A DNA stretch of 64,000 bases from Escherichia phage vB_EcoM-Ro121c4YLVW. The notes below the pieces were generated by a model that saw nothing but the letters and a program-made list of their open reading frames with translations, made no database searches and had not been told where the DNA came from. Positions within the stretch are counted from its first letter, which is position 1, and each line of letters begins with the position of its first letter. The DNA is taken from sequence record NC_052654.1, one strand, 5' to 3'. Position numbers and translations under genes: made by a program. Below, in pieces: positions 42,876-56,666 of this stretch.

Positions 42876-42966
42876 AATATTTTCCTCTTCTCTTTGTTAG
42901 GCGGTGGACCATTCCGCCGCCTTGATGTAATACAGTTTACTTTATTTTTGCAGTATTGCAAGCGTT

Positions 42967-43179
42967 TTATGAAATAATCGTCAAAGTAAAATTGTAATCA
43001 CCTGATTGGTACAATACTTTATCACCGAACGTTCCAACACGTTTAACATTGCAATATATACCCATAACACTTTTTACATCTTTGATATTCTTCACGCCTG
43101 TAATATCTTTATTAAAATGATCGTGATCAGAAAATAAAACTTGACTTGCATTTTTTAACAGTGTGCGGATATTAGCCAT
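42967..43179 (-). CDS. hypothetical protein
   Basis: ORF track 70 aa. Confidence 0.45.
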   Translation of the reverse strand: MANIRTLLKNASQVLFSDHDHFNKDITGVKNIKDVKSVMGIYCNVKRVGTFGDKVLYQSGDYNFTLTIIS

Positions 43180-43212
43180 CGTGATAATCTCTCTTCTGTT
43201 GTGAGCGGCACT

Positions 43213-43270
43213 ATTGCCGCCCTACGTAATACAGTTTACTCTTTTTCTTTCCCGTGTCAACAATCTTTTT
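43213..43270 (-). promoter_or_regulatory. array promoter unit
   Basis: gagcggcactattgccgccctacgtaatac...tgtcaa. Confidence 0.6.
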
Positions 43271-43497
43271 CAGATTAATTCATCCAGGCATAACAGGCGA
43301 TCAACGTTGAGATCGGTCAGGCTGATGGTTGGCACCTGGTAGGATTCGATGTACTCAACGCTTGCATATTCCCCAAAATTAGCAATAGCCCACTTATTCA
43401 AGATCTCACATACATCATTAATCTTTTTGTTTGTTACAACTGCAATAACCTGGGAAGTGCCAACGGTGCCGGATACGCGAACAATATTGATAGCCAT
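43270..43497 (-). CDS. hypothetical protein
   Basis: ORF track 75 aa. Confidence 0.45.
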   Translation of the reverse strand: MAINIVRVSGTVGTSQVIAVVTNKKINDVCEILNKWAIANFGEYASVEYIESYQVPTISLTDLNVDRLLCLDELI

Positions 43498-43519
43498 AAT
43501 CTTTAATCTCTCTGCTGTT

Positions 43520-43579
43520 GGCGGGAAACCACTTCCCGCCCTATGTGATACATCTTACACTAATTTTAAACGTTGTCAA
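43520..43579 (-). promoter_or_regulatory. array promoter unit (hairpin variant GGCGGGAAGTGGTTTCCCGCC)
   Basis: ggcgggaaaccacttcccgccctatgtgatacatctta...tgtcaa. Confidence 0.6.
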
Positions 43580-43588
43580 CTGTTTTTA

Positions 43589-43828
43589 TTACATTCCAAC
43601 CATCGCGGCGCGGATCGCTGTAGTGCTATACTTGAAACCGTCTGGAGTTTTATCTTGTCCAGTTTGTTCCAGGAATAACATCATATCACGGGCAGCATCA
43701 TTACGATTAGTATTAGCGGCGATAAATTCTTTCGCCAACCGATATAATGATTCGTCGTTATTAATCCAAAGGCTTACATTCCAGTGAGTTTTGTTTTTGT
43801 GACCGTTGTAAGTTTTAGTAATAGCCAT
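43589..43828 (-). CDS. hypothetical protein
   Basis: ORF track 79 aa. Confidence 0.45.
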   Translation of the reverse strand: MAITKTYNGHKNKTHWNVSLWINNDESLYRLAKEFIAANTNRNDAARDMMLFLEQTGQDKTPDGFKYSTTAIRAAMVGM

Positions 43829-43849
43829 GATGATAATCTCTCTTTGAAT

Positions 43850-43911
43850 GAGGCGGGAACTATTCCCGCTCTCTATGTAATACAGTTTACTCTTTTTATT
43901 CGTGCTGTCAA
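43850..43911 (-). promoter_or_regulatory. array promoter unit (degenerate TAGAGAGCGG)
   Basis: gaggcgggaactattcccgctctctatgtaatac...tgtcaa. Confidence 0.5.
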
Positions 43912-43917
43912 TGCTTT

Positions 43918-44283
43918 TTATAAATCTTTTTTACGTTTTACATCGCTTGCATGACTGTATACAGTGATCCCATTGTCACGGCAAAAACGGGAAAGATACG
44001 CGCCGCGTGAAAATTCCTTGCCCTCAAGGTTGATAACCTTGCTAAATTCTTCCAGGGCGACGGTATCAAAATGATCACCATAGCCATATTGAAACGGAAC
44101 GTTAACCACCTCGATCAGTTTACCGCCGATCTCAACGTCAACCATTAAAGAAAAATATGTGTTACCGTAGGACTGTTGAAACCAGCGACGGGCGCTAATA
44201 TGCACCGCCTCAATGCTGGATAATTCAATTTTAGCCGTGTTAGCCAGGGTAGCATAAGCGGAAACATTGATATTAATAGCCAT
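43918..44283 (-). CDS. hypothetical protein
   Basis: ORF track 121 aa. Confidence 0.5.
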   Translation of the reverse strand: MAININVSAYATLANTAKIELSSIEAVHISARRWFQQSYGNTYFSLMVDVEIGGKLIEVVNVPFQYGYGDHFDTVALEEFSKVINLEGKEFSRGAYLSRFCRDNGITVYSHASDVKRKKDL

Positions 44284-44380
44284 GGTGTCACTCTCTCTTT
44301 TTGGTTAGTGGGAAGTATTCCCGATAAAAGTTATTATGCTTATACTATCACTCATTGTCAATAGTATAAGACTAAAACTT

Positions 44381-44560
44381 TTAACGATAATCATTATAGG
44401 CTTTATTGACCTGGCGAATGTAACATTCGAAAGCAAGATCAATGTATTCGTATTCACGCACATAATCACCATAGGTCACTACATACATTTTTAAAGTTTC
44501 CTCATAAGCCAGGAGGATCGAATCTAAACCTATAATCTCAGTTTTTGCAATGATAGCCAT
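44381..44560 (-). CDS. 59-aa hypothetical protein
   Basis: Promoter unit upstream; below ORF-track cutoff. Confidence 0.4.
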   Translation of the reverse strand: MAIIAKTEIIGLDSILLAYEETLKMYVVTYGDYVREYEYIDLAFECYIRQVNKAYNDYR

Positions 44561-44580
44561 GATGTTAACCTTTTATTGTT

Positions 44581-44637
44581 GGCGGCACCATTGCCGCCCT
44601 ACGTGATAAACTATACCAGAAGTTTAAACAGTGTCAA
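44581..44637 (-). promoter_or_regulatory. array promoter unit
   Basis: ggcggcaccattgccgccctacgtgataaacta...tgtcaa. Confidence 0.6.
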
Positions 44638-44643
44638 CCGTTT

Positions 44644-45006
44644 TTATTCGTAAATTTTACCGCTTTCGGCCCATACCATAACGCGGCGCATACTATCCCA
44701 AGTGTTTTGATCCAGGTTTAAGCCGTGCAACTCTTCGGTACTTCCCAGACCAGGTACCGCTTTGTTGTAAGTCGCATATAAGCGCCCTTGATACTCATAC
44801 GCCAGAGTAAGATCCTTTTGAATCATCTTTTTAAGCATAGCATTAAGCATCATATTAGCGGCATGTTGATCACGTTTTAGCGGTAACATGTCAATAAGGG
44901 CGCGATAAGCTGAAACATGAATATCAACCGTTTCACGTGGTAAATTTTTCATATCATTGCGGAAAGATACCAGATTAAACATGATAGTATTGATTTGCTT
45001 GCTCAT
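44644..45006 (-). CDS. hypothetical protein
   Basis: ORF track 120 aa. Confidence 0.5.
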   Translation of the reverse strand: MSKQINTIMFNLVSFRNDMKNLPRETVDIHVSAYRALIDMLPLKRDQHAANMMLNAMLKKMIQKDLTLAYEYQGRLYATYNKAVPGLGSTEELHGLNLDQNTWDSMRRVMVWAESGKIYE

Positions 45007-45027
45007 TGTGTTACCCTTTTTTGTTTT

Positions 45028-45088
45028 GGCTGGGAAGTATTCCGCCGCCCTATGTGATACATCTTATCAGATTAAAAAACGTTGTCAA
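45028..45088 (-). promoter_or_regulatory. array promoter unit
   Basis: ggctgggaagtattccgccgccctatgtgatacatctta...tgtcaa. Confidence 0.6.
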
Positions 45089-45096
45089 GAATATTT

Positions 45097-45192
45097 TTAG
45101 AAAATAATAGCCGCTACTACAATCCAAAATGGAACGGCTAGAATGATAGCGTTAATCGTTCCAACCGTCAAGCTATTTTCTTTATTAATCAT
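45097..45192 (-). CDS. 31-aa hydrophobic membrane peptide
   Basis: Promoter unit upstream; below ORF-track cutoff. Confidence 0.35.
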   Translation of the reverse strand: MINKENSLTVGTINAIILAVPFWIVVAAIIF

Positions 45193-45219
45193 TGTAAGCC
45201 TCTTGCATAATTTCACTAT

Positions 45220-45278
45220 GAGCGGCACCATTGCCGCCCTACGTGGTAAATATTATGCCAGTGGCGGCGATATGTCAA
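45220..45278 (-). promoter_or_regulatory. array promoter unit
   Basis: gagcggcaccattgccgccctacgtggtaaatatta...tgtcaa. Confidence 0.6.
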
Positions 45279-45841
45279 AGACTATTTTCAAAGTTTTCTA
45301 GTGCGATCCTTTTTTCTTCCTCTGTCGGCTGATAATCAGGAAAAGCATCAACACACAACAACGGCGGGATCTCTTCGTACTCTTCCTCTTCCGTTGTCTC
45401 CTCGTCTTCCTCCTGGGCTATGGCTGCAATTTTGGCTAATTTTCTTTCAGCTTGAATCAATTTACCATCAAGTACGTTTTTTGCCATGTTGTAAGCGGTC
45501 CAGGTGATGCGCTTACTTTCCAGGGCCTGATCGAGCGCCGCTATCTTGCTGGGGTATTCATCCAGGACACGAAAAGCCGGATCAACTTTGTACAAAGGAT
45601 TATCTTTCGCGCCGTCGCTCGCATCTTCCGCACTGGATAAATCAGCGTTACCATTTGCCAGCCAGCCAGGGCGCACATAACGCGCTTTTACGTTGCCGTT
45701 ACTACGTGCTAATCTGTTACCTATTTGCTCACCACTATATCCCGTGGATTCATCGATAAGATGATCGGGAATGATGCGCGGATCATCTGCTTCATGTTTT
45801 ACCCAAGACTGGATCACATATTCGCGGCCCATATTAACCAC
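45275..45841 (-). CDS. hypothetical protein with acidic C-terminal region
   Basis: ORF track 188 aa. Confidence 0.5.
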   Translation of the reverse strand: MVNMGREYVIQSWVKHEADDPRIIPDHLIDESTGYSGEQIGNRLARSNGNVKARYVRPGWLANGNADLSSAEDASDGAKDNPLYKVDPAFRVLDEYPSKIAALDQALESKRITWTAYNMAKNVLDGKLIQAERKLAKIAAIAQEEDEETTEEEEYEEIPPLLCVDAFPDYQPTEEEKRIALENFENSL

Positions 45842-46091
45842 CTTTTTTCAACAATTGGCATACTTTAAAAAGACTTGCTGAATCCTTGCAAGGGTAGAAA
45901 GATGTACGATAATCACGTACGCCAACCTTGCGGATCTCGATGTTCTCGCATGTTGTTTGATCAAAGATATTTATTTCATCACGCCCCCTTATATAAACAT
46001 AGTGGGGATGTATTAACGCATATTTTGCTAATCTGTAAAAAGCGTTATCTTTGAACGCGATCACGTGACCTTTTAATTTGATGTAAAACAT
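45834..46091 (-). CDS. hypothetical protein
   Basis: ORF track 85 aa; promoter unit at 46109-46164. Confidence 0.45.
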   Translation of the reverse strand: MFYIKLKGHVIAFKDNAFYRLAKYALIHPHYVYIRGRDEINIFDQTTCENIEIRKVGVRDYRTSFYPCKDSASLFKVCQLLKKGG

Positions 46092-46167
46092 TCTACCACC
46101 TTACAAATAGCGGGAACTATTCCCGCTTTATGTAACATATTAACAAATTATTCGTTAATGTCAAGCC

Positions 46168-46440
46168 TTAAAGCAAAAACGCTACATCTTGCGCTTTTAG
46201 TGTAGTATCAACCATTTTCGGGCTTTTATAATCAACAAAGCGCGCGGTTTTTTCAATAGCGAAACCGAGATAATCTTGCTTGTTGAAATTACATTCTTTC
46301 TTAAATGTTTCCCGTGCAATAGTGATCGCTGCGTCCAGGGATAAACGCCCGTCAATATTGATATTAGCGAAAGATCCGCCACCGCTCATAGGTTTACCAG
46401 TGGTGCCAGCTACGATCATTGTTGCGCTATATGATGCCAT
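46168..46440 (-). CDS. hypothetical protein
   Basis: ORF track 90 aa. Confidence 0.45.
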   Translation of the reverse strand: MASYSATMIVAGTTGKPMSGGGSFANINIDGRLSLDAAITIARETFKKECNFNKQDYLGFAIEKTARFVDYKSPKMVDTTLKAQDVAFLL

Positions 46441-46464
46441 GATGATAATCTCTCTTCTGTTGTG

Positions 46465-46525
46465 AGCGGTGGACCATTCCGCCGCCCTATGTGATACATC
46501 TTATCAGGTTGTTGTTTGTTGTCAA
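46465..46525 (-). promoter_or_regulatory. array promoter unit
   Basis: gagcggtggaccattccgccgccctatgtgatacatctta...tgtcaa. Confidence 0.6.
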
Positions 46526-46531
46526 TACTTT

Positions 46532-46729
46532 TTATTCTATTCCTGCAATTTGATTAACGCGCTTGCATTTTGTAGCGTGCTGGTCTTCTGTAATGACTCC
46601 CATTTCTAACAGGGAATCAATGAAAGATAAAACCGTTTCATGATCATCCTGGGGGTGACTGAACTCAGTAAAACCGTTTACCACTACGTTGATTTGTCCA
46701 GCTTTCGCCACAATGTGCAATGTTGCCAT
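46532..46729 (-). CDS. hypothetical small protein
   Basis: Start at internal ATG (MATLHIVAK...). Confidence 0.45.
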   Translation of the reverse strand: MATLHIVAKAGQINVVVNGFTEFSHPQDDHETVLSFIDSLLEMGVITEDQHATKCKRVNQIAGIE

Positions 46730-46748
46730 GATTTTAACTCCAAATAAT

Positions 46749-46807
46749 GAGCGGCACCATTGCCGCCCTACGTGGTAAATATTATGCCGCCACCTGGCGA
46801 ACGTCAA
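46749..46807 (-). promoter_or_regulatory. array promoter unit (last copy)
   Basis: gagcggcaccattgccgccctacgtggtaaatatta...cgtcaa. Confidence 0.6.
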
Positions 46808-46916
46808 TCACTTTTTCAATCTTTTTTATTTTCTTTTTGCTTGCTATATATAAAAGAAAGGGCTATCATCTTTCTACCGCGCCAACCAGGGCGCACATCA
46901 AAGAAAGGGCGATACC

Positions 46917-47120
46917 ATGACAACTACATTACACCTTATGCACTCATTGGGCTGGCAAGGCGGCACGGTGCACCAGGTAGCAAGTGCAACGGGCTTAAAG
47001 GTTGAAACCGTTCTCAACCTGGGCGATCATAAGGTGGAAGAGATAGATCATTTTGATACGTTCGCAAATGGTTATCTATGGGCTTGCAGTGGCGGCGGGG
47101 CGATATGTATTTTTGGTTAG
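46917..47120 (+). CDS. hypothetical small protein (only + strand gene within the leftward block)
   Basis: ORF track 67 aa; weak RBS. Confidence 0.35.
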   Translation: MTTTLHLMHSLGWQGGTVHQVASATGLKVETVLNLGDHKVEEIDHFDTFANGYLWACSGGGAICIFG

Positions 47121-47154
47121 GTGTCCTATCCTGGCAAGAAAACAAAAAATAATC

Positions 47155-47183
47155 TTGACAAGCCCAGGGATCGGGCTTATACT
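47155..47183 (+). promoter_or_regulatory. sigma70-type promoter with no ORF downstream
   Basis: TTGACA-N17-TATACT; palindromic spacer. Confidence 0.5.
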
Positions 47184-47189
47184 GTTTTA

Positions 47190-47290
47190 CATACAGAAGA
47201 GGAAGCGCCACCCCACGGCGTAAAGGCGGGGCTAACATACCAGGGGGCACTGGTTGGAAGGTTGATCGCCGGTAGGCTGGGCGCTATATA
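47190..47290 (+). ncRNA. candidate small non-coding RNA
   Basis: GC-rich segment with local hairpins just downstream of the promoter, ends near an A/T-rich stretch; no ORF. Confidence 0.25.
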
Positions 47291-47537
47291 TTTGTAAAGA
47301 AATGTAAAGATAAAATAATCGCTTGCTTTCCTGGCTGGATCTGTTATTCTTATTACATGGCGAGGGGACACGGGAGCGCGAGACAAACACCACCCCTGCG
47401 CGTCATTCTCTAAATGAGAATGATTATCATTTACCTTATCAAATAAGAATCAATCTCATTTATAAACCTAAATGCGAATCATTATCATTTGCATTTCCAT
47501 ATGAGAACTCTTCTCATTCCCATCTGCATAAATTTTT

Positions 47538-47740
47538 GTAAACTTTAAATTTTGCTTTTGTACTTTCATTTTTGTAAAAGCAAAAAAACTTTAAATACTG
47601 TGGGCGCGCAAAATTTTTAAAATTTTCCTTGACTTTTGAGTTTTGTTTTGTATCTGACATTTTAAGATAATTTTCCTAAACTTTAAATTTTGGTTTTCAA
47701 CTTTCACTTTTGTAAATTCTTAAAAAGTTTAAATAATTTG
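47538..47740. repeat. two about 63-bp direct repeats rich in A-tracts plus short TTTGAGATAA repeats (iteron-like)
   Basis: Copies at about 47538-47600 and 47677-47740. Confidence 0.55.
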
Positions 47741-47958
47741 AGGGATTTTTGAGATAATGGATAGTGGGAATTTGAGATAACCTTTAATCTTATTGGCAGA
47801 CCTTCAGGAAGCCACTTAGATCGAATCCTAGCAATGCAAACTGAAAAAGACAAGTGTTTGTATAGGACAAAATAATAGGCTCTCTACGGTGCTGTAGGAG
47901 CCTTATTTCTGTGCTACAAAGTGACACCTTTGTTCTAAAAATGAAAAAAGTTAAAATA

Positions 47959-48501
47959 TCACAAATATCGTCTTTGCGGTATTTTGTCTGGGAAAAGTAT
48001 TTCGATCAGTTTATTATGATATTTGCCTAAAAGATTCTGCCCTTTCCAGGTGGCAGGGTTTAGCACCCCTGGTTCATACATCCCCATTCCAATTCCGTAA
48101 ACCTTATCGTAGGGGCTTGCTTCAACAAACGTTTTGTATTGGTAAAGGTGTAAGTCTGCATACAAATCTGGATTCTGTACATATTTCAAGCATAAACCTC
48201 GCATAACAATACGCTCACGGTTCTCTTCCCACATATCATTATTAAAACCAGATACCGCTCGACCCATACGTTTGTAGTATGCTTGTTTCCTCTCGTTGTC
48301 ACGTATAGTCGAGTGATCAAGGATAGCTGCTGCAATCGCATGATCCTTGAACAGCAAAGCCTTACGCCACATCATATATTGCTCAACACAACAGAAAGTC
48401 TCATTGTAACCTGGTTCAGTTTCTGTAAAGGGTGCAATATACCAATTACTAAACACATCTTTATGTGAAAAGAAGAATACATATTCATCAGTTATTCTCA
48501 T
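47959..48501 (-). CDS. NADAR (YbiA-like) domain protein
   Basis: FFFS...FSNW, CVEQYMMWRKA, KRMGR, FVEASPYDKVYGIG match the NADAR signature. Confidence 0.7.
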   Translation of the reverse strand: MRITDEYVFFFSHKDVFSNWYIAPFTETEPGYNETFCCVEQYMMWRKALLFKDHAIAAAILDHSTIRDNERKQAYYKRMGRAVSGFNNDMWEENRERIVMRGLCLKYVQNPDLYADLHLYQYKTFVEASPYDKVYGIGMGMYEPGVLNPATWKGQNLLGKYHNKLIEILFPDKIPQRRYL

Positions 48502-48676
48502 TTTTCATGCCTTCTAAAACTTTAGCTTGCCCGTCTTGAAAAGCTTTCATCAGAACTATCTTAAGATTGACTTCCAAACGTTCTTCATCCTCTCTATAAC
48601 AATCCAACACTGCTTTAAGTTCATCATAGTGGCTCAGAATAGGTTTAAAGATTTCATGATCTGCTAAACGTGTCAT
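48488..48676 (-). CDS. hypothetical small protein
   Basis: Start at ATG after AAGGAGAAA. Confidence 0.4.
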   Translation of the reverse strand: MTRLADHEIFKPILSHYDELKAVLDCYREDEERLEVNLKIVLMKAFQDGQAKVLEGMKNENN

Positions 48677-48689
48677 AGTTTCTCCTTTG

Positions 48690-49055
48690 TTAATCCATCC
48701 ACCAGTAGCCATAAACTGCGTCTGCGTCGATGAGTTTGTGTTTGTTGTTCCGCATGTAGTCTAAGATAAGTAGACGTTTATTGTATCTGGAGAGATTATG
48801 ACCCTCTTTTCCGCCATAGTCAAAATATTTTGCAAGATCTTTACACTCAAACAAAATCAGTTCGGGAGTTTCTTCACACTGGTCTGTCTGGTACACTTGA
48901 CGAATGATCATGTATACATCGTCGTCTTCCGCTAAATGCTCTACTGGTCCACATCCAGCAGGAACAAATTCATAGTCCCATCTGATCAGATGTTTCTCTA
49001 CTGCTTCAAAGAAATCCATCCTTTCGTTGCGCATAATTTGAACGTCAACTAACAT
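48690..49055 (-). CDS. hypothetical protein
   Basis: ORF track 121 aa. Confidence 0.45.
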   Translation of the reverse strand: MLVDVQIMRNERMDFFEAVEKHLIRWDYEFVPAGCGPVEHLAEDDDVYMIIRQVYQTDQCEETPELILFECKDLAKYFDYGGKEGHNLSRYNKRLLILDYMRNNKHKLIDADAVYGYWWMD

Positions 49056-50251
49056 GTTTCCTCCTGTAATGTTCCACCATAAAGTTTATAAATGTTTTGT
49101 ATTGAGGCCATGCAAGATAACTCTACTGTTTCTGTGTAGCCATCTGGCATAGAATATTTGCTCACTGCTTCCGTGTGAAGGACACGCTTACAACGCTTTT
49201 CTGCATCTTTGCATTGCTTCACAGTAGGGAAGTGCCACACTTGGACCTGTTTCATAGTAAACACATTACGACTATTTTGTTTTTTGATACGGCGATCACT
49301 ATTATTGGCAATTCCAAATTTCAAAGCACAGAGAATACCTTGTTCATCATGAATGTGGTTAATGTAACATTGTTGTTGTGTCTGGTTAGCACATTGCGGA
49401 CAACCAGTGCCATGATTTAACAAACCACTGGCACGTCCTATTTGTACCCCATGTTTCTTACATCCATATTTAAACTTACCTAATCTTACAGACGGTTTCC
49501 CGATCCAACCTACCCAGATATACCCTTTCCTTTCTACTGCCTTTTTTACCCTATAGGTAATCTGTGCTTCTGTGTAATGACAGTTAGTTGCACAACGGCA
49601 AGGAATCTTCCCTTGTTTAAGGTCATTCCCTGCGACATAAAACTTACCATCACACACCCCAGCTTGCACATACTCATCGTGAGAGCAGGCAGGACACTCT
49701 ACACACCATAAAGAATCGCGGCCTCGTTTTTTATCTGTTTTAGTGAAGATTGTACCCTCTTTAAACTTTCCTGTATTAATGAAGTCTTGTATGTGCTGAT
49801 CGTCTGGAAGTATTTTAGAATTCCTAGATCTTTTGTTACCGCATTTAGGACAACCACTACCACCCTTAAGATTATGAAATGTTAATGTTCGCCATTCCCC
49901 GTGCTCAGGACAAAGGTTGATCATCTTTGTATGTACACCTATAAACTCTCCATTAATGCCTAAAATCTTGATTCCCTTAGCTTCAGCAATAGGCTTACAT
50001 TCCGAAAGGTAATAATCTAGGTTTTTACTGTTGTCTTGTCTTGCTTTCTCATTTTTGCACCTAGGGCAACCAGACTTACCACGTTTAAAATTGGCAAATG
50101 TGGATGTTCTCCACTCCCCATGATTAGGGCAGAAGTTGATCATCTTCGTGTGCACACCTTTAAATGGCTCTACAATCCCTATAATCTCATATCCTTTAGC
50201 TTCCGCTATTGGTTTACATTCTCCTATATACTGTTCTAACGTCTTCGCCAT
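49049..50251 (-). CDS. multi-zinc-ribbon protein with internal tandem duplication; possible nuclease-like C-terminal domain
   Basis: Two about 80-aa repeats ending CPxHGEWRT..F.N.K.G.SGCPxC; further CxxC pairs; C-terminal FGIANNSDRRIKKQNS region. Confidence 0.5.
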   Translation of the reverse strand: MAKTLEQYIGECKPIAEAKGYEIIGIVEPFKGVHTKMINFCPNHGEWRTSTFANFKRGKSGCPRCKNEKARQDNSKNLDYYLSECKPIAEAKGIKILGINGEFIGVHTKMINLCPEHGEWRTLTFHNLKGGSGCPKCGNKRSRNSKILPDDQHIQDFINTGKFKEGTIFTKTDKKRGRDSLWCVECPACSHDEYVQAGVCDGKFYVAGNDLKQGKIPCRCATNCHYTEAQITYRVKKAVERKGYIWVGWIGKPSVRLGKFKYGCKKHGVQIGRASGLLNHGTGCPQCANQTQQQCYINHIHDEQGILCALKFGIANNSDRRIKKQNSRNVFTMKQVQVWHFPTVKQCKDAEKRCKRVLHTEAVSKYSMPDGYTETVELSCMASIQNIYKLYGGTLQEETC

Positions 50252-50293
50252 CTTTATCTATCCTCTCTCCCTATAATCTGAAGTCAATATAAC

Positions 50294-50314
50294 AAAACCC
50301 GCCGAAGCGGGTTT
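50294..50314 (-). terminator. Rho-independent terminator (minus strand)
   Basis: cccgccgaagcggg hairpin then T-run on minus strand. Confidence 0.55.
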
Positions 50315-50330
50315 AGTTATTTGTGCTGTA

Positions 50331-51470
50331 TCAGAACACGCTACCCAGTGTAGTGGAACGTTGTGTTACAGGCTCCAGCACCACTCGCAGAGTGTTTCCT
50401 GGTGTAGTGCTCATCACCAGAATCTTACCACCTTCAATCAGATCACAAGTTAGACCATCAGCAGTTGCACACAGATCAATATGTGGATCGCCATCTTCAT
50501 CCAGGATAACATAACTGTTGGTTTCCATTGCTTCCACTTCATCATCTTTCAAACTTTGCAGATAGATGTTCAGGGAACAAGCACCCGACAAAAACTTAGT
50601 AGGGGTGAAGTCGTGCCAGTTATTGATCCAATTCACCTTCAGGGTTTTGCCATTAGCTACGATAGAAGCCACATTCCATTTAGCATCGTTGCCTAAAGAA
50701 ATACCCATCATTTCCAGACATTCTTTAAAAGTCATTTTTGGATAGAAATTCAATTCTTCTACAATACCTTGAATAACATCAAAAGACAACTCTGTACTAA
50801 CATCCCATAAACGTTGGAAGTTATCTACGTGCTTTTTATTTACCAAGTTCTTATCCAAGTAATCTAACATAGTTTCACTAGACAGTTTATCGTAATTGAA
50901 ACTGTAATAGATACGACTAGGACGGTTTACAAAATATTCCGAGATATAACCACTATTTTTAGTGAGGATGTAAAGTTTATTCCCACTTCCTGTTCCATCC
51001 AACAAGGTCAACAGTGCTTCCTGATCTTCTTTCTTAGCGTACACTTTATCAAATTCGTCAAATAAAACAACAGCACGATCTGTAATTTTACTCATAAATT
51101 CTAAGAAGCCAGCATCTGTGTAAGGCTGTGTAACCAAAATGGTTGGAATACCTAAACCTTCTGTGGACATTAGAGACATGCTAATCAGTTTAGCTAACAT
51201 CGTCTTACCACTGCCCTTTGTCCCTGTCAGTAACACCCCAGTATTTTTACCTTCTTTACTACGACGAGCAAATGTTTTAATAACATGTGCGGCGCGGTCT
51301 TTAGTTTCCCCATAAAGAGTGTTCGGAAGAGAGAAACTTTCGCCACGCACTAAAGAGTAGTTACCGTGCGGATCGCAGTTGACAACCCAAACTCCAGCAG
51401 GAAGTTTATTAGCTTCAACGCCATATTCCTTATTTACAACCGCTACATCTCCAAAAATAGTGTATTTCAT
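50331..51470 (-). CDS. AAA+ ATPase
   Basis: Walker A GTKGSGKT, Walker B VVLFDEFD; 379 aa. Confidence 0.65.
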   Translation of the reverse strand: MKYTIFGDVAVVNKEYGVEANKLPAGVWVVNCDPHGNYSLVRGESFSLPNTLYGETKDRAAHVIKTFARRSKEGKNTGVLLTGTKGSGKTMLAKLISMSLMSTEGLGIPTILVTQPYTDAGFLEFMSKITDRAVVLFDEFDKVYAKKEDQEALLTLLDGTGSGNKLYILTKNSGYISEYFVNRPSRIYYSFNYDKLSSETMLDYLDKNLVNKKHVDNFQRLWDVSTELSFDVIQGIVEELNFYPKMTFKECLEMMGISLGNDAKWNVASIVANGKTLKVNWINNWHDFTPTKFLSGACSLNIYLQSLKDDEVEAMETNSYVILDEDGDPHIDLCATADGLTCDLIEGGKILVMSTTPGNTLRVVLEPVTQRSTTLGSVF

Positions 51471-51826
51471 TAGAACGTTTCTCCTTTTAAAATAATTACT
51501 GTAAACTTTGCAGTTTTTTCACTCTTAATATTCTTGACTAATAAGTATTCTCCTCCAGGGGCATCTTTATATTGTTTAATAGCTACTATTTCATTTTTGC
51601 AAGTAGCTATAATCGAATAAAAAGGACGTTCCGTGTTATCTTCTTTTCCTGTATATGCCTCAACATCTTTGCACTGTTCTAGAACACCATTCCCAGGTGT
51701 ATAGTAAAACTTGTTGCCTGTGATCACAACATCTTTACCAATATCTGTTTTAACTGCTACAAATTTTTGAGCGTAAGTGGTGAAGCTTACGGTAGCCAGC
51801 AATGTGGCTAAGATTAGTTTTTTCAT
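51470..51826 (-). CDS. secreted small protein (signal peptide)
   Basis: MKKLILATLLATVSFTTYA-QK; start at internal ATG. Confidence 0.5.
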   Translation of the reverse strand: MKKLILATLLATVSFTTYAQKFVAVKTDIGKDVVITGNKFYYTPGNGVLEQCKDVEAYTGKEDNTERPFYSIIATCKNEIVAIKQYKDAPGGEYLLVKNIKSEKTAKFTVIILKGETF

Positions 51827-51837
51827 AAACTTCCCTC

Positions 51838-52002
51838 CTATTCCCACAACATACAAATCGCAGCGACAAACATATTAGCAATAGCCGCACCAAGAACTAT
51901 AAACATCGCCAGTTCAGAACAATATTCACCAACCAGAGGGGATACTATTGCACAGAGTAATCCCAATGTCAAACACAAGTTGATGATGAAGTTTAAAATC
52001 AT
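51838..52002 (-). CDS. 54-aa membrane protein
   Basis: GGAGAGAAT RBS then ATG; two hydrophobic segments; below ORF-track cutoff. Confidence 0.4.
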   Translation of the reverse strand: MILNFIINLCLTLGLLCAIVSPLVGEYCSELAMFIVLGAAIANMFVAAICMLWE

Positions 52003-52011
52003 ATTCTCTCC

Positions 52012-52203
52012 TTACAACCAACCTTTTGCCTGATAGCCTTTAGAAAATCCATCTTCCCATTCTTCGAATTCCTTTTTGTGTGTCATTGGACAATATGGAT
52101 TTACTTTATTAAACATACCAAACTTGAACCCTGCGGTATACCCCTTCTTAAAAGCTATTGATTCTAAAGAGATCATATTCTTTCTCCTCTTAGAACTCGA
52201 CAA
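52012..52203 (-). CDS. hypothetical protein
   Basis: ORF track 63 aa. Confidence 0.4.
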   Translation of the reverse strand: MSSSKRRKNMISLESIAFKKGYTAGFKFGMFNKVNPYCPMTHKKEFEEWEDGFSKGYQAKGWL

Positions 52204-52441
52204 TGATTTTGTCTAAGTGTTCTGCTTCAACTTGGGATAATGTTAACACCTGCACCAAACCTCTGTCAATACCAATTTTAATGACTTGCAAATAATCACC
52301 AAAAAGATCTGATAAAGAAATAGCATGTTCCGTAACTACAATAACTTCATTACCTTTAGTGTATTCTTTCCACACCCGACCACATTTATAAATGTAATCT
52401 TTTTGATCTTCAGTAATCATTTTAGGTTTGATACTTAACAT
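52190..52441 (-). CDS. hypothetical protein
   Basis: ORF track 83 aa. Confidence 0.45.
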   Translation of the reverse strand: MLSIKPKMITEDQKDYIYKCGRVWKEYTKGNEVIVVTEHAISLSDLFGDYLQVIKIGIDRGLVQVLTLSQVEAEHLDKIIVEF

Positions 52442-52779
52442 TACATACTCCCGTATTCTGGTTCAATATTATGTTTACGACAAATGGTATCCCAACGTTC
52501 ATTACCAAAACTTCTTCCATGTAGAGCGTTAAATGCGAAATGCTCTGCCAACCACAATACTACATCATCAGGATCTGTGTCAAGAGGAATTCTAAACTCT
52601 CGATCATAACGCATACGCAGAATAAAATCCTTATCATCTTCAAGGAGATACATGTGACTTTTAGCCCGTGATGCCAAATCAAAGAAAGGAGGCTCATCTT
52701 TCCAAACGTGACGCTCAACTTCAACACCATGATCTACTACCAGAGTAGCGATCACCTCTCTCATTTCTTTACTAAACAT
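52441..52779 (-). CDS. hypothetical protein
   Basis: Start at ATG after AATGGAGGTAAT. Confidence 0.45.
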   Translation of the reverse strand: MFSKEMREVIATLVVDHGVEVERHVWKDEPPFFDLASRAKSHMYLLEDDKDFILRMRYDREFRIPLDTDPDDVVLWLAEHFAFNALHGRSFGNERWDTICRKHNIEPEYGSM

Positions 52780-52789
52780 ATTACCTCCA

Positions 52790-52978
52790 TTAACCAATGA
52801 GTTCAACTGCTTTGCAGATGTAGATCCAAACCGGAGTGAGCATAAGAGCTATACCGAATGCACAATTCCACTTAATTCCCATTTCCTCTATTAGAGACAT
52901 GATTAAGCCAACAGCACTAATAATCAGATAGATCCCTAAGAAAGCCATTGTGAAGAATTCAGACATATTTAGCTCCAA
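52790..52978 (-). CDS. small membrane protein
   Basis: 62 aa, two hydrophobic helices. Confidence 0.4.
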   Translation of the reverse strand: MELNMSEFFTMAFLGIYLIISAVGLIMSLIEEMGIKWNCAFGIALMLTPVWIYICKAVELIG

Positions 52979-53325
52979 AGATTATCAAAATAACTAGCGA
53001 ATAAAAGACGGCCCTCTAACCGTGCCTTCCTTTGATCTTCAGCATACACGATTTCTGGATTACCACTATCAATAAAAGCATTCTCCATCTTTTCTAAAAT
53101 ATTTAACCACTCTCTTCTACCTGTCTCCTCTTCTTCATCTGTATACGGCGCACTTCTATTTGGATACAAAACACGCATCAGTTTAGTGGGGATCATGACA
53201 AACGTGCTATTGTTTGCCTTCTCGCGGAAGGCTTTAATTCCTGCATAGATTACCTTCCCCAAAGCTGCATCCAAATCCATCAGGTCACTTTCTTCTATTT
53301 GAATTTCATCGTGTACAATTTTCAT
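52969..53325 (-). CDS. hypothetical protein
   Basis: ORF track 118 aa. Confidence 0.45.
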   Translation of the reverse strand: MKIVHDEIQIEESDLMDLDAALGKVIYAGIKAFREKANNSTFVMIPTKLMRVLYPNRSAPYTDEEEETGRREWLNILEKMENAFIDSGNPEIVYAEDQRKARLEGRLLFASYFDNLWS

Positions 53326-53609
53326 CGTGCCTTCTCCCGATCTGCGTCCAATTTCAACAAGAAGGTTGCATACTCTTCTGAGCCTTGATGCAAGAACATA
53401 CGATAAGAACTTACCAGTTTCTTGGTCGTTGTATAACGTTCCATTTCCCCAACAACACCTCCACCCAGGGTGTAGAGCACAACACCCTCAAACCCAACAT
53501 GAGTTACTACTTCAACCAAGTCTGTGTTATCCCAATGGTAGTTAGGTGACACAATAAGATCGCCAACTGCCAGTTTAATGTTTGCTACTTCATTTTGTGA
53601 ATAATACAT
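53322..53609 (-). CDS. hypothetical protein
   Basis: ORF track 95 aa. Confidence 0.45.
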   Translation of the reverse strand: MYYSQNEVANIKLAVGDLIVSPNYHWDNTDLVEVVTHVGFEGVVLYTLGGGVVGEMERYTTTKKLVSSYRMFLHQGSEEYATFLLKLDADREKAR

Positions 53610-53621
53610 TTGGTTCTCCTC

Positions 53622-53915
53622 TCACATTAAGACACGTTTTGTATCGATGGGTGCATTATCAAACATGTTAAGAACATTGTCAAGCAGTTTTACTAATTCA
53701 TTTGTAATTTGTTCTTTTGAACGGGAGGAAGTGAGCACTTTGCTTTCACCAACGATATGCATAACTTTTATAGGAGCATCTAAAATAATGTTGTGCTGAC
53801 GATCCTCTTCAAAAGAAGCCAACCATTTCTCGTTGTTACCGTGTAAGGCTACAATGACACCAAAACCGTTAATTGTCTCAGAAATATTCTTAGTTGCTAA
53901 AGTAATGTTCATCAT
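53622..53915 (-). CDS. hypothetical protein (first gene of leftward block)
   Basis: ORF track 97 aa. Confidence 0.45.
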   Translation of the reverse strand: MMNITLATKNISETINGFGVIVALHGNNEKWLASFEEDRQHNIILDAPIKVMHIVGESKVLTSSRSKEQITNELVKLLDNVLNMFDNAPIDTKRVLM

Positions 53916-53929
53916 CTACCTCTCTTGTT

Positions 53930-53995
53930 AATGTTCATATATGATACCTGAAAATAATTTCAGATCAAGTATTGACATGCTTTTTAGTCCTGTTA
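53930..53995. promoter_or_regulatory. divergent promoter hub
   Basis: Rightward TTGACA-N16-TAAGAT (53964-53991); leftward TTGATC-N16-TATCAT on opposite strand. Confidence 0.5.
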
Positions 53996-54029
53996 AGATC
54001 AACTCATACAAAACAAGAGGAGAAAACAA

Positions 54030-54464
54030 ATGCAAAACATCAAACTAACTTGGACCGAAGCTAAAGAAGCAATGAAGGAAGGTAGACGTGTTGAGCACAG
54101 TTATTTTTGCGGTGGTGAATGGTTTGAGATGCGAGATGGTGTTATTCTCGACGAACAAGGTTATAACATGGAAACTTGGTTCAGAGGGGAAGCTTGGCAG
54201 GAAGAGGGTTGGTCTGTAATTGAAAAAGAAGACAGTAAGGAAGAAGGCGTGTTGTCTAATGTAGAACGCAAGATGAGGGAAACAAAGATACCTGCTTTGG
54301 ATTTTGTATACCTGGAAGAACTTGTGGCAGCATCTTTTGTAGCAGGAAATCTTTGGAATACACCTGTTAGCCGACTGGAGAACCAAAATAACCCATCTGC
54401 TCGTAATCACAAGCTTTATAAGGGTAAAGGTCACAACAAATTAAAGAAAGGAAAGAAGAAATGA
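54030..54464 (+). CDS. hypothetical protein with basic C-terminus
   Basis: ORF track 144 aa; RBS AAGAGGAGAA. Confidence 0.5.
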   Translation: MQNIKLTWTEAKEAMKEGRRVEHSYFCGGEWFEMRDGVILDEQGYNMETWFRGEAWQEEGWSVIEKEDSKEEGVLSNVERKMRETKIPALDFVYLEELVAASFVAGNLWNTPVSRLENQNNPSARNHKLYKGKGHNKLKKGKKK

Positions 54465-54607
54465 TCTACAAAAACAAGTTCACTGGTTGTCTCCGTAAAT
54501 TTATCGATAAGAAAGGGTATGTTTCTCTTGACAACGGGGTTACATGGACAGAGAATGGCACTTCAGAACAGCTGATCAAAGCTTTGCCTTACTACGAGGA
54601 GGTTTAA
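54461..54607 (+). CDS. 48-aa hypothetical protein
   Basis: ATGA-coupled; fills gap; below ORF-track cutoff. Confidence 0.35.
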   Translation: MIYKNKFTGCLRKFIDKKGYVSLDNGVTWTENGTSEQLIKALPYYEEV

Positions 54608-54931
54608 ATGTCAAACAGTTTGTTTAGCGTGTCAATTGCACCACGTGTCAACATCCGTTGTCAGTTTGTTACTTTACCTGGTGTAACGCATATCACATTA
54701 GAATACGATCCTCGCTCACGAGACAACCCAATCACAGGGAAAATTGATTGTGCTTATGGAGACTTTGTTATGGATCACCAAACCCTCTTATGCTGTGTGC
54801 AACGCTTACAGGCAGGATCTTTATACATCTTTAAGAAAACAGTGTTCCAAGAGATTGCTCAAGCAGTTGAAAGCGGTATGGAGACTCTTAACGTTATGAT
54901 TGAAGCAGCCAACCAGAAGGAGGTTTTATGA
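54608..54931 (+). CDS. hypothetical protein
   Basis: ORF track 107 aa; RBS GAGGAGG. Confidence 0.45.
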   Translation: MSNSLFSVSIAPRVNIRCQFVTLPGVTHITLEYDPRSRDNPITGKIDCAYGDFVMDHQTLLCCVQRLQAGSLYIFKKTVFQEIAQAVESGMETLNVMIEAANQKEVL

Positions 54932-55185
54932 CACTTTATCACGTAACCACTGAAGGCGATACCGAAGGTCGTACTACGAAAGATTTAGGGTATGTTGAAG
55001 CAGATTCCCCTGAACACGCAATTAAGTATTTGCATTCCATCGGTAAATATGCGACTTATGAATATACTATCTACAAGGTTGAAGTTAGCCCTATACAAGT
55101 GGCAACTCCTATGGTAGAGTTGAAACATCTTAAGGCAAAAGTAAGACCTGGTATAGTGTCCGATTACAAAGGGGGAGTAAAGTGA
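54928..55185 (+). CDS. hypothetical protein
   Basis: ORF track 85 aa. Confidence 0.45.
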   Translation: MTLYHVTTEGDTEGRTTKDLGYVEADSPEHAIKYLHSIGKYATYEYTIYKVEVSPIQVATPMVELKHLKAKVRPGIVSDYKGGVK

Positions 55186-55394
55186 GTGGATGGATTAAAG
55201 TATCTGGTACCGAGGATGTTCCTATCGGAGAGTGGCTTGTAATCATGGCAAACGGCAAGAAGGGATTCTGTGAAGTTAACAAAACACGCAATGGCACGAT
55301 AGCTGTTATCAATGGTCATTTTTATTTTGACTTGGCACCTGTGATCGCATACCATGCACTACCAACATATGAAGAGGAGATTAACAATGGCTAA
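55182..55394 (+). CDS. hypothetical protein
   Basis: ORF track 70 aa. Confidence 0.4.
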   Translation: MSGWIKVSGTEDVPIGEWLVIMANGKKGFCEVNKTRNGTIAVINGHFYFDLAPVIAYHALPTYEEEINNG

Positions 55395-55710
55395 CAAAGA
55401 ACCACATGTATACACTGCACTGGTAAAGCACTTGAACAAAGAACGTAACAAGATCATTGCAGATTATCGTAAATTTAAACGTAGTAGTCTAAATCGTAAA
55501 TACATGCCACATGCAGCTTTTGACGCTACACGTGCAGTGTTTCGTGCAAAGATTGCAGAAATGGATAATCTGCTTAAGCTTGCACGATTATCTATTCAGG
55601 CATCCAAAGTAACAGGAGTCACTCACTTCTTTGACTTCGATACTAAAGCACTATATGCACCAGAAGCAGGTGAACAATTGATTTATCTACTTACCAAAAA
55701 TAAGTGTTGA
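55387..55710 (+). CDS. hypothetical protein
   Basis: Start at ATG after GAGGAGATTAAC. Confidence 0.45.
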   Translation: MANKEPHVYTALVKHLNKERNKIIADYRKFKRSSLNRKYMPHAAFDATRAVFRAKIAEMDNLLKLARLSIQASKVTGVTHFFDFDTKALYAPEAGEQLIYLLTKNKC

Positions 55711-55715
55711 CTTTT

Positions 55716-55790
55716 TTCAAAAAATATGCTACCCTAACCCCGAAGGGTCGAGCGATAGCGAGTATAGATTATGTAATAGATTAATCTCTA
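55716..55790 (+). promoter_or_regulatory. promoter-like conserved element, copy B
   Basis: TTGACTTTTTTCAAAAAATATGCTACCCTAA...CGAGCGATAGCGAGTA, homologous to 20935-21010. Confidence 0.4.
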
Positions 55791-55879
55791 TCGTTAGATG
55801 TTCGAAGAACAGAGATTTAAGTACTTGTTCTTATCGGTAGATGATCGTAAGATCAAGAACAATAATAGGAGAGTGTGTT

Positions 55880-56077
55880 ATGTTAGTCAGTGAAATACTA
55901 CCTGACTCTAATGGTAATCAGATCACTATTGATTGGTTTCCTGGTACTGGTACACTAGATCTAACTGCTGAATGGTCTGGTGATATTTATGGAGAAGGTG
56001 TATTATCATTGTCTACAGAACAAATGATCATCCTTCGTGACTTCTTAATTAGTTTAGATCTAGGAGAAAACAAATGA
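55880..56077 (+). CDS. hypothetical protein
   Basis: Start at ATG after AGGAGAGTG. Confidence 0.45.
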   Translation: MLVSEILPDSNGNQITIDWFPGTGTLDLTAEWSGDIYGEGVLSLSTEQMIILRDFLISLDLGENK

Positions 56078-56343
56078 GTAAAACTTCTGTTGAGTTTATC
56101 GAGAAATCCCCTGTTCCAAAGTTATACCGTTTATCTGAAATTGAACCTATGTCTGTTTTCTATTACTACAACTCAGAAGTAAATGAACAAGAACGGGACT
56201 ACTACTTAGCTACAGATACAGGTGCAGTTTGCTTAACAGGTTCTCGTGCAGGAGAATACATTGCAAATAGTCGTTTTAATGAAGCAGATTCCTGTTGGGC
56301 TAAGGTTGAAACTAAGATCGTCATCAACATCATCAATCATTAA
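56074..56343 (+). CDS. hypothetical protein
   Basis: ORF track 89 aa. Confidence 0.45.
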   Translation: MSKTSVEFIEKSPVPKLYRLSEIEPMSVFYYYNSEVNEQERDYYLATDTGAVCLTGSRAGEYIANSRFNEADSCWAKVETKIVINIINH

Positions 56344-56425
56344 GATTAATCTCACAAAGAGTTACTTGACATGTGCAAAGCTCTTTGTGTAGAATAAAGA
56401 TTCACTTACTAAGGAGACTTTATAA

Positions 56426-56623: not shown

Positions 56624-56666
56624 CTAATTAGAGGGTATACTTGTAAACAAGATTAAGGAGGCATTT

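Follow-up and report, generated by a model that had tools for sequence, protein, structure and literature searches.

The NADAR gene of a Phapecoctavirus coliphage as a probable counterpart of the anti-DarT factor AdfN^Bas60

The anti-DarT factor NADAR (AdfN) of phages was described by Johannesman et al. (Nat Commun 2025; PMC11825919), with hydrolysis of guanine-ADP-ribose (guanine-ADPr) and rescue from DarT1/DarTG1 shown for AdfN^Bas60, AdfN^Bas32 and AdfN^T4. In uninfected E. coli, with no phage factors present, AdfN^Bas60 neutralises DarT1; it also restores plaquing of RB69, T5 and Bas25 in the face of DarTG1, though not of DarTG2 (PMC11825919). It is encoded by bas60_0111, the only NADAR found in Bas60 (Escherichia phage PaulScherrer, genus Justusliebigvirus; MZ501100.1). 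NADAR subtypes that share in vitro activity differ in their rescue of cells from DarT1, and in one study neither YbiA nor T4 gp30.3 gave such rescue. The active site of the family was defined by structure and mutagenesis in PnNADAR, as residues E43, K50, K75, R79, W89, R93, E125 and D130 (Schuller et al., Mol Cell 2023).

Layout of the locus

The window analysed here is a stretch of 64,000 nucleotides from Escherichia phage vB_EcoM-Ro121c4YLVW (NC_052654.1), a phAPEC8-like coliphage placed in Phapecoctavirus, which is the sister genus of Justusliebigvirus within the Stephanstirmvirinae. The open reading frames given in an earlier note on this DNA were all recovered at the same coordinates on the minus strand. 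All genes from the ATPase to the NADAR gene are co-oriented with short gaps, the NADAR gene being the final one of the leftward run. Promoter-like sites showed no enrichment over shuffled sequences. The features are as follows.

47959..48501, minus strand: NADAR gene (AdfN-type), putative stand-alone ADP-ribosyl glycohydrolase, 180 aa (Pfam, AF2, Foldseek, synteny)
48488..48712, minus strand: small ORF, 74 aa, phrog_22330 (ORF list, PHROG match)
48690..49055, minus strand: 121-aa ORF, phrog_24465 (ORF list, PHROG match)
49049..50251, minus strand: T5orf172/CapR-type homing-endonuclease-like gene, 400 aa, phrog_681 'endonuclease' (Pfam, PHROG)
50295..50314, minus strand: intrinsic-terminator-like hairpin, directly after the ATPase stop codon
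50331..51470, minus strand: classical-clade AAA ATPase, 379 aa, phrog_2376 (PF00004, AF2, Foldseek)
51470..51856, minus strand: small protein with signal-peptide-like N-terminus, 128-aa ORF, phrog_5474 (ORF list, PHROG match)
51838..52002, minus strand: hydrophobic (membrane) peptide, 54 aa, phrog_27459 (ORF list, PHROG match)

The NADAR protein and its probable target

The NADAR signature that the earlier note had recognised in the 180-aa product is matched far beyond chance (Pfam PF08719, E=3.4e-35; 122.1 bits, cutoff 35.1), with residues 11-161 covering positions 3-154 of the 163 in the profile; the protein also matches phrog_1017 (E=3.8e-51) and, by sequence, PDB entry 8BAU (E=1e-12). Its AF2 model (pLDDT 95.1, pTM 0.88) predicts a YbiA-like alpha-helical core fold, for which Foldseek returns PnNADAR with ADP-ribose (8BAU) as the best match (E=1.8e-9, TM 0.78) and YbiA (2B3W) as a further one (E=2.3e-6, TM 0.68). 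Mapped through the 8BAU alignment, the PnNADAR active-site residues correspond to E40, K47, K77, R81, W91, R95, E127 and D132 of the phage protein, all eight being present and none lost. In an alignment of 10 NADAR sequences all of these are invariant; in a larger one of 48 sequences six of the eight are invariant, R81 is nearly so and R95 is not listed. The gene is under purifying selection (dN/dS 0.11-0.17), and 69 phage records carry it at an amino-acid identity of at least 80%, as many as carry the ATPase at that threshold. Stand-alone bacterial NADARs are its nearest cellular relatives, in agreement with the clade reported in PMC11825919. Searches with Pfam, NCBIfam and PADLOC found no ART or DarT domain among the neighbouring ORFs; the phage NADAR has no adjacent DarT toxin and is hence of the orphan (toxin-less) type.

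Protection of the phage from a DarT-type toxin that ADP-ribosylates guanine, the counter-defence proposed in the earlier note, is by analogy the best reading of this gene, because a syntenic homologue with 57% identity (E=9e-68), AdfN^Bas60, experimentally neutralises DarT1; the gene order ATPase, endonuclease-like gene, NADAR is common to both phages. We take the protein to be an orphan NADAR-family ADP-ribosyl glycohydrolase and the Phapecoctavirus counterpart of AdfN^Bas60. In infected E. coli carrying the DarTG1 toxin-antitoxin defence, DarT1 would ADP-ribosylate guanine in the phage DNA and thereby block phage replication, while the NADAR, acting as a single protein with no need of its neighbours, would hydrolyse the ADP-ribose-guanine bond and restore replicable DNA. 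We infer the same substrate and the same anti-DarTG1 effect as for AdfN^Bas60, although at an identity of 57% the range of substrates may have shifted.

A different main target in vivo, with DarT1 reversal as a side activity, seems to us quite unlikely. The candidates would be ADP-ribosylated RNA or cytidine, or an NAD+-consuming system inhibited through ADPr binding. Recent papers report reversal of cytidine ADP-ribosylation by NADARs and a role in the reversal of RNA ADP-ribosylation, and reference 37 of PMC11825919 concerns a phage NADAR acting without catalysis; inhibition through ADPr binding is reported for a T5 NADAR acting against Retron-Eco1. Of 80 other viral NADAR loci, 22 have NAD+-salvage genes (NAMPT, PRPP synthetase) no more than 10 kb away, a hint that phage NADARs may belong to a wider NAD/ADPr context, but in the Stephanstirmvirinae such genes do not adjoin the NADAR. 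Direct data for this clade exist only for a specific reversal of guanine (DarT1), not thymine (DarT2), modification (PMC11825919), and the strict invariance of the catalytic residues favours an enzymatic over a purely binding role.

That the protein is instead a housekeeping-type N-glycosidase acting during infection in damage control on reactive early riboflavin intermediates and not on DNA adducts, like E. coli YbiA or the plant COG3236 domain, is highly improbable: with 114.9 bits, NCBIfam TIGR02464 'riboflavin biosynthesis intermediates N-glycosidase' (equivalog-domain) exceeds its cutoff of 73.7, many GenBank records name the gene 'GTP cyclohydrolase II' or COG3236, and the protein shares with the YbiA family a Glu as catalytic acid at the PnE125 position, but the NADAR family profile favours PnNADAR (8BAU), a proven guanine-ADPr hydrolase, by a wide margin over YbiA (125.6 against 60.5 bits), as does the structural match given above (TM 0.78 against 0.68), no riboflavin gene is fused to or adjoins the NADAR, and AdfN^Bas60, with its anti-DarT1 activity, was placed outside the YbiA-like group (PMC11825919). 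Even YbiA hydrolyses guanine-ADPr in vitro, so the TIGR02464 name is itself compatible with DNA de-ADP-ribosylation.

The neighbouring genes

The duplicated zinc-ribbon modules that had been noted in the 400-aa protein are evident, residues 2-72 and 75-144 being 64% identical and each module bearing C-x2-HG...CPxC, in the manner of DUF723-like Zn modules. Four C..H/C..CxxC modules were counted in all; CapR scores 98.6 bits (cutoff 24.2) over three stretches of the protein and DUF723 scores 46.6 bits (cutoff 20.9). The C-terminal GIY-YIG-related MUG113 remains at 17.3 bits, below its cutoff of 22.3, and T5orf172 falls below its Pfam cutoff in this allele but just passes in its orthologues from Bas60 and BME3 (20.6-20.7 against 20); the nuclease motif residues Y296-I-N, K311-x-G-I, R321, N326, E351 and E374 are invariant across six alleles. 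In comparison with L008, the flanks of the gene are 99.0% and 96.4% identical, whereas blastn finds no DNA similarity across 49066-50325 and the L008 allele at this locus is only 34% identical. Alleles of the endonuclease-like locus range from 329 to 486 aa, with one to three N-terminal modules in different phages, and at an amino-acid identity of at least 80% the gene is found in only 8 records, as opposed to 69 for the ATPase and the NADAR. A tblastn search with the 400-aa protein finds putative HEGs of ICP1. We suggest a selfish, homing-endonuclease-like gene of the T5orf172/CapR type with putative homing and cleavage activities, which seems to behave as a mobile or exchangeable cassette and not as a partner of the NADAR.

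The AAA+ ATPase assignment of the earlier note likewise holds (PF00004, 29.9 bits against a cutoff of 21.2), and the Walker A/B core is in place, GTKGSGKT and DEFD being invariant. The AF2 model (pLDDT 85) predicts a beta domain at the N-terminus and a beta-rich one at the C-terminus; Foldseek matches it to Bcs1, Rpt, FtsH and Cdc48 (E about 1e-8), and the profile search against the PDB points to p97/Cdc48 D2 (1e-7). Homologues are widespread in large phages (395 phage records). The hairpin that follows, AAACCCGC-TTCG-GCGGGTTT and then a T-rich tail, stands between the ATPase on one side and the endonuclease-like gene and NADAR on the other. Bas60 has an equivalent hairpin after its ATPase, and L008 has one of different sequence and the same structure, the terminator-like element being kept in three allelic contexts.

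The remaining ORFs are small. The 74-aa ORF is specific to Phapecoctavirus and had no match in Pfam or PADLOC; its true start is probably Met13, because the PHROG match spans residues 13-71 and the relatives are annotated as a shorter CDS of 180 nt. The 121-aa ORF, 99% conserved across Phapecoctavirus, is without a match in Pfam, NCBIfam and PADLOC. The product of the 128-aa ORF, earlier called a secreted protein, does have a signal-peptide-like start, MKKLILATLLATVSFTTYAQ, from residue 11 of the listed ORF, where the phrog_5474 match also begins; the protein probably starts at MKKL, at about 51826.

A functional cluster of NADAR, zinc-ribbon protein and AAA+ ATPase, as the earlier note had grouped them, is not borne out by the comparative evidence. 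A single multi-component counter-defence or DNA-repair system formed by the ATPase, the zinc-ribbon protein, the two small ORFs and the NADAR would be in keeping with the co-orientation and short gaps, and with the conservation of the order ATPase, endonuclease-like gene, NADAR across both genera at 64%, 51% and 57% identity. The idea is unsupported, however, because AdfN^Bas60 works alone in E. coli and needs no other phage factor, because the endonuclease-like gene is swapped for a 34%-identical allele within a backbone of 96-99% identity, because the conserved terminator-like hairpin lies 3' of the ATPase, and because the adjacency of NADAR and ATPase is limited to one phage subfamily. The ATPase is found near the NADAR in 4 of 80 viral NADAR loci, all four of this subfamily, and is absent from the flanks of the 76 more distant ones; in Enterococcus phages with both genes (phiEF24C-type) the two homologues are about 20 kb apart, in the Vequintavirinae the NADAR is located in a replication/repair module, and the two small ORFs are missing from Justusliebigvirus. 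These comparisons already largely refute such a system, to which we give next to no credence. On sequence comparison the AAA ATPase gene is independent of the NADAR and widely conserved in large phages, and its adjacency to the NADAR looks like lineage-specific synteny inherited within the Stephanstirmvirinae, not like a system. We hold it to be likely that the locus carries an AdfN^Bas60-like orphan NADAR that would reverse DarT1 damage alone, with independent neighbours whose adjacency reflects inherited synteny.

There is a small but real chance that the 400-aa cassette, placed immediately upstream of the NADAR, drives gene conversion of its flanks and so shuffles NADAR (anti-DarT) alleles among co-infecting Stephanstirmvirinae. 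Such an exchange is hinted at by the clean cassette swap between near-identical backbones, by a raised NADAR dS against tuntematon (0.38, where the ATPase and the 121-aa ORF have 0.08-0.11) and by the clustering of all 16 NADAR amino-acid changes in that comparison within residues 34-90. If true, a selfish nuclease would be the vehicle for the exchange of a counter-defence gene. Cooperation of ATPase and NADAR in vivo, despite the comparative evidence, is a weaker alternative than this exchange.

Comparison with known systems

The counter-defence reading has largely been published before, as regards both the mechanism and the phage clade (2025). It allows a well-supported function, anti-DarTG1 DNA de-ADP-ribosylation, to be assigned by analogy to a gene whose label in most GenBank records of Phapecoctavirus is 'hypothetical protein' or, in error, 'GTP cyclohydrolase II'. 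What looked like a gene cluster comes apart into an unrelated ATPase and a cassette of the selfish-endonuclease-like kind. As Phapecoctavirus phages are being considered for therapy and biocontrol, a core anti-DarTG1 gene could be useful for predicting host range on DarTG1-positive E. coli.

For the 400-aa neighbour, the comparison is with gp165 and gp174 of ICP1 and with PLE CapR (Netter 2021, PMC8096241; Barth 2023, PMC10448857). As in the T5orf172/CapR genes of ICP1, repeated CapR/DUF723 zinc modules precede a C-terminal domain, here a putative one, of the T5orf172/MUG113 kind, the module copy number is variable (1-3) and the gene is sited at a boundary of genetic exchange. It differs in occupying one locus in two genera, and would therefore be long-resident or repeatedly replaced, not sporadic.

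The DarG1 antitoxins (BC4488 subfamily; E. coli C7, G. lovleyi) share the fold and the presumed role of DarT1 antidote, and the same reaction, guanine-ADPr hydrolysis, would be expected in the phage protein. They have a catalytic Asp (D171 in E. coli C7) where the phage NADAR has Glu127, and the latter lacks both the N-terminal beta1-beta2-alpha1 extension and an adjacent DarT1, beginning directly at the core (match from residue about 5-8); the G. lovleyi DarG1 structure was matched neither by PDB sequence search nor by Foldseek. Identity as a DarG1-type (BC4488) antitoxin was rejected on account of Glu127, the missing N-terminal DNA-binding extension and the missing DarT neighbour. AdfN^T4 (T4 gp30.3) is a phage orphan NADAR countering DarTG1, but has His at the catalytic Glu position, needs the T-even context for full activity and belongs to a separate clade nearest to DarG1; with Glu127, not His, invariant, identity with this clade was also rejected.

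PnNADAR (Phytophthora nicotianae) is the top PDB match by structure and sequence, and the phage NADAR keeps all of its ADPr-contacting and catalytic residues, including the Glu-type catalytic acid. It differs in being eukaryotic and outside a conflict context, in its identity to the phage protein of only about 26%, and in a short N-terminal/C-terminal extension near its active site. The closest resemblance is to AdfN^Bas60, also a stand-alone phage NADAR of about 180 aa, with 57% identity over the whole domain, the same place in the genome, following ATPase and T5orf172/CapR genes and preceding a gap of ~800 nt, an identical set of catalytic residues with Glu at the PnE125 position, and a subfamily-specific 7-residue insertion ahead of K77. 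The two are separated by genus (Justusliebigvirus as opposed to Phapecoctavirus) and by 43% sequence divergence, and the Phapecoctavirus locus has two extra small ORFs inserted upstream.

The NADAR protein and its counterpart in phage Bas60

The window belongs to a phAPEC8-like coliphage of the genus Phapecoctavirus (subfamily Stephanstirmvirinae), to which vB_EcoM_UP17 and DE16 show 98.6% identity over a 4-kb region. Every ORF that the earlier note had placed around the NADAR gene is present, on the minus strand and at the coordinates assigned to it:

Genes of the NADAR region
47959-48501, minus strand: NADAR, 180 aa
48488-48712, minus strand: small ORF
48690-49055, minus strand: small ORF, 121 aa
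49049-50251, minus strand: endonuclease-like ORF, 400 aa
50331-51470, minus strand: ATPase ORF, 379 aa
minus strand: 128-aa ORF with a signal-peptide-like start
minus strand: 54-aa ORF, hydrophobic

The assignment of the 180-aa product to NADAR was borne out by Pfam PF08719 (122 bits against a cutoff of 35, E=3.4e-35, nearly the full domain covered), and structure prediction with AlphaFold2, using 48 homologues as input, gave a model with pLDDT 95.1 and pTM 0.88. Its top structural matches are 8BAU, a Phytophthora NADAR with ADP-ribose (TM 0.78), and E. coli YbiA (TM 0.68), which score 125.6 and 60.5 bits, respectively, with the NADAR family profile. Schuller et al. (PMC11543638) identified eight residues of PnNADAR as serving ADPr binding and catalysis (E43, K50, K75, R79, W89, R93, E125 and D130), which correspond to E40, K47, K77, R81, W91, R95, E127 and D132 of the window protein. 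All eight are invariant in a 10-sequence alignment that includes AdfN^Bas60, the NADAR of phage Bas60; in a 48-sequence alignment six of the eight are invariant and R81 is nearly so, with R95 not listed. Selection on the gene is purifying (dN/dS 0.11-0.17). NADAR and the ATPase are each found in 69 phage records at 80% identity or more, and these equal counts suggest that NADAR is core to the genus. A promoter of NADAR's own was looked for, but sigma-70-like matches in the region (e.g., 48823-48795) number 31, which does not exceed the 24.1 +/- 5.1 of shuffles.

The catalytic acid of the window NADAR is Glu, whereas DarT1-associated antitoxins carry Asp and T4-type phage NADARs carry His at this position, and an N-terminal extension is absent; the protein therefore lies outside the DarG1-type and T4-type clades, and membership of either was ruled out. 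Among cellular proteins, its nearest relatives are bacterial NADARs that stand alone (40-47% identity), in agreement with the clade to which AdfN^Bas60 has been assigned (PMC11825919).

Orphan antitoxin NADARs of phages (AdfN) strip ADP-ribose from DNA and defeat DarTG1, as described for T4 gp30.3, AdfN^Bas32 and AdfN^Bas60 (Johannesman et al., Nat Commun 2025, PMC11825919). In that study the two latter proteins neutralised DarT1 in uninfected E. coli and restored plaquing of RB69, T5 and Bas25 on DarTG1, while DarTG2 was unaffected by either. Bas60-62 were there called Vequintavirinae, but they are listed under Stephanstirmvirinae elsewhere (PMC11564622), and Bas60 itself (MZ501100.1, Escherichia phage PaulScherrer) is assigned by its GenBank record and by NCBI taxonomy to Justusliebigvirus within Stephanstirmvirinae, a genus that is sister to that of the window phage. 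AdfN^Bas60 is therefore the direct syntenic homologue of the window NADAR. Its gene, bas60_0111, encodes a protein 57% identical to the window's (E=9e-68) and is the only NADAR found in Bas60 outside 50001-61999 (~12 kb); relatives in Justusliebigvirus have one NADAR place per genome. Gene order in Bas60 is that of the window: ATPase (64% identical), endonuclease-like gene (51%), NADAR and a gap of ~800 nt. On identity, synteny and agreement of clade, the window NADAR is thus, judged from sequence, orthologous to a counter-defence enzyme that has been characterised. The core proposal of the earlier note, counter-defence, is supported by the anti-DarT1 phenotype of this orthologue and probably right; the finding is real, yet of a kind already known from the recent publication.

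Two other functions were weighed against this one. It is improbable that the main target is instead another ADPr conjugate (RNA, cytidine) or an NAD-linked defence. Less probable still is the main alternative, a YbiA-like riboflavin-intermediate N-glycosidase: NCBIfam TIGR02464 does score above its cutoff and so accounts for the "GTP cyclohydrolase II" labels, but the family is much nearer PnNADAR than YbiA, riboflavin genes are absent from the vicinity of the window NADAR, and the anti-DarT1 phenotype of AdfN^Bas60 speaks against it.

Nicotinamide phosphoribosyltransferase and/or PRPP synthetase (NAD+ salvage) lie within 10 kb of NADAR in 22 of 80 viral loci (L009-L088), and YpsA/SLOG-family ORFs recur in 12 of the same set; neither pattern was seen in the Stephanstirmvirinae loci. 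The window phage has another NAD-linked gene ~30 kb from NADAR, encoding a Sir2 (sirtuin) family protein (16472-17278, plus strand; 96% identical to bas60_0185).

DNA downstream of NADAR

The NADAR stop codon is directly followed by ~780 nt of AT-rich non-coding DNA (47180-47958), within which two direct repeats of 72 nt each (47531-47602 and 47669-47740) are 82% identical. A similar unannotated gap lies behind NADAR in the Justusliebigvirus phages BME3 and Bas60, and in tuntematon the gap holds an annotated repeat_region. ARAGORN and Rfam searches detected no tRNA or known ncRNA anywhere in the window, the ~1.4-kb low-coding stretch downstream of NADAR included. Possibly, 47180-47958 serves as an origin or regulatory region.

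Beyond the gap, a small gene on the plus strand (46917-47155) is convergent with NADAR. Its intact form of 88 aa is ~90% conserved in both genera (bas60_0113; homologues in DE16 and tuntematon); in the window a 28-nt deletion after ~47095, whether a true mutation or an artefact of assembly, frameshifts the C-terminus and leaves a 67-aa ORF. The DNA from 46800 to 47432 is 88% identical to that of Bas60, above the ~70% of the coding flanks. Further on (42000-46800, minus strand), an intergenic cassette of ~60 nt occurs in 7-9 copies ahead of successive small genes, each with a TTGACA-17-TATnnT promoter-like site, a GC-rich hairpin (e.g., GGGCGGCAATGGTGCCGCC) and then a ribosome-binding site; it looks like a repeated module of early promoter plus 5' hairpin.

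The ATPase and the proposed cluster

The ATPase scores above the PF00004 cutoff, with invariant Walker A (GTKGSGKT) and Walker B (DEFD) motifs. By both its AF2 model (pLDDT 85) and profile searches it is a member of the classical AAA clade (Bcs1, proteasomal Rpt, FtsH, p97/Cdc48), with additional N-terminal beta and C-terminal beta-rich domains; from clade only, a role in protein remodelling may be proposed. It belongs to PHROG 2376. Phage records that contain it number 395, among them jumbo phages, Herelleviridae and crAss-like phages, and Bas60 encodes a paralogue at 43% identity. No tie to ADP-ribose was found. The neighbours were also considered as known defence or anti-defence components and rejected as such: PADLOC and NCBIfam returned only weak generic P-loop matches for the ATPase, while the endonuclease-like protein and those small ORFs that were searched drew no match.

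The earlier note had described NADAR, the zinc-ribbon protein (the endonuclease-like ORF) and the ATPase as clustered; as far as comparative evidence tells, the three do not form a functional cluster. We examined co-localisation in 80 viral loci of NADAR relatives, taking at most 10 kb on either side and less where a contig ended: the ATPase lies near NADAR in four Stephanstirmvirinae-type loci only and in 0 of the 76 others. Both genes are present in phiEF24C-type Enterococcus phages, ~20 kb apart, and in the Vequintavirinae phage 4MG, NADAR is surrounded by ligase, exonuclease and HNH genes. A GC-rich hairpin with a T-run follows the ATPase stop codon in the window (50295-50314) and in Bas60, and a hairpin of the same structure but other sequence follows the ATPase in the 3A1_SA_NWU allele context; with this terminator-like element in three contexts, the ATPase appears to end a transcription unit. 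These observations, together with the cassette swap at the endonuclease-like gene, argue against a conserved functional module. The two small ORFs between that gene and NADAR are missing in Justusliebigvirus, and AdfN^Bas60 acts alone (PMC11825919). The adjacency of the three genes is, on this comparison, inherited synteny.

Upstream, a three-gene block (52969-53915; ORFs of 97, 95 and 118 aa) points the same way as the NADAR run in the window phage, and the same block is inverted and divergently transcribed in Justusliebigvirus (L007, 14894-15828); the co-oriented run therefore begins at different genes in each genus.

Possible allele exchange and the endonuclease-like gene

Between the window and tuntematon (L004, 3060-3602), NADAR has a dS of 0.38, the ATPase one of 0.08 and the 121-aa ORF one of 0.11, and all 16 amino-acid differences in NADAR fall in residues 34-90, none at catalytic residues. 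By this measure the NADAR gene is locally mosaic. That the HEG-like cassette next door promotes the exchange of NADAR alleles is a tentative and rather unlikely suggestion.

The 400-aa protein, assigned to PHROG 681 "endonuclease", shows CapR homology domain matches in three stretches (98.6 bits), DUF723 and, weakly, MUG113/T5orf172; the Bas60 and BME3 alleles pass the Pfam cutoff for T5orf172. GIY-YIG-like motif residues are invariant in six of six alleles that are otherwise 35-72% identical. Its duplicated Zn modules (residues 2-72 and 75-144) are 64% identical, and their number varies by allele, with one in tuntematon (332 aa) and BME3 (329 aa), two in the window and three in Bas60 (467 aa). 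Between the window and 3A1_SA_NWU, identity is 99.0% as far as the ATPase stop (53227-50326) and 96.4% from 49065 downstream, and no DNA similarity is detectable over precisely the stretch made up of the endonuclease-like gene and the spacer upstream of it; the 3A1_SA_NWU allele encodes 486 aa and is 34% identical to the window's. Only eight phage records carry the protein at 80% identity or more, as against 69 each for the ATPase and NADAR. The best interpretation of the gene is a selfish or swappable cassette, probably not a partner of NADAR. With tblastn, the 400-aa protein matched putative homing endonucleases that ICP1 carries in multiple copies. In architecture and behaviour the window's endonuclease-like gene matches the T5orf172 HEGs with CapR/DUF723 Zn-finger repeats that lie at genetic exchange boundaries (Barth et al. 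2023, PMC10448857).
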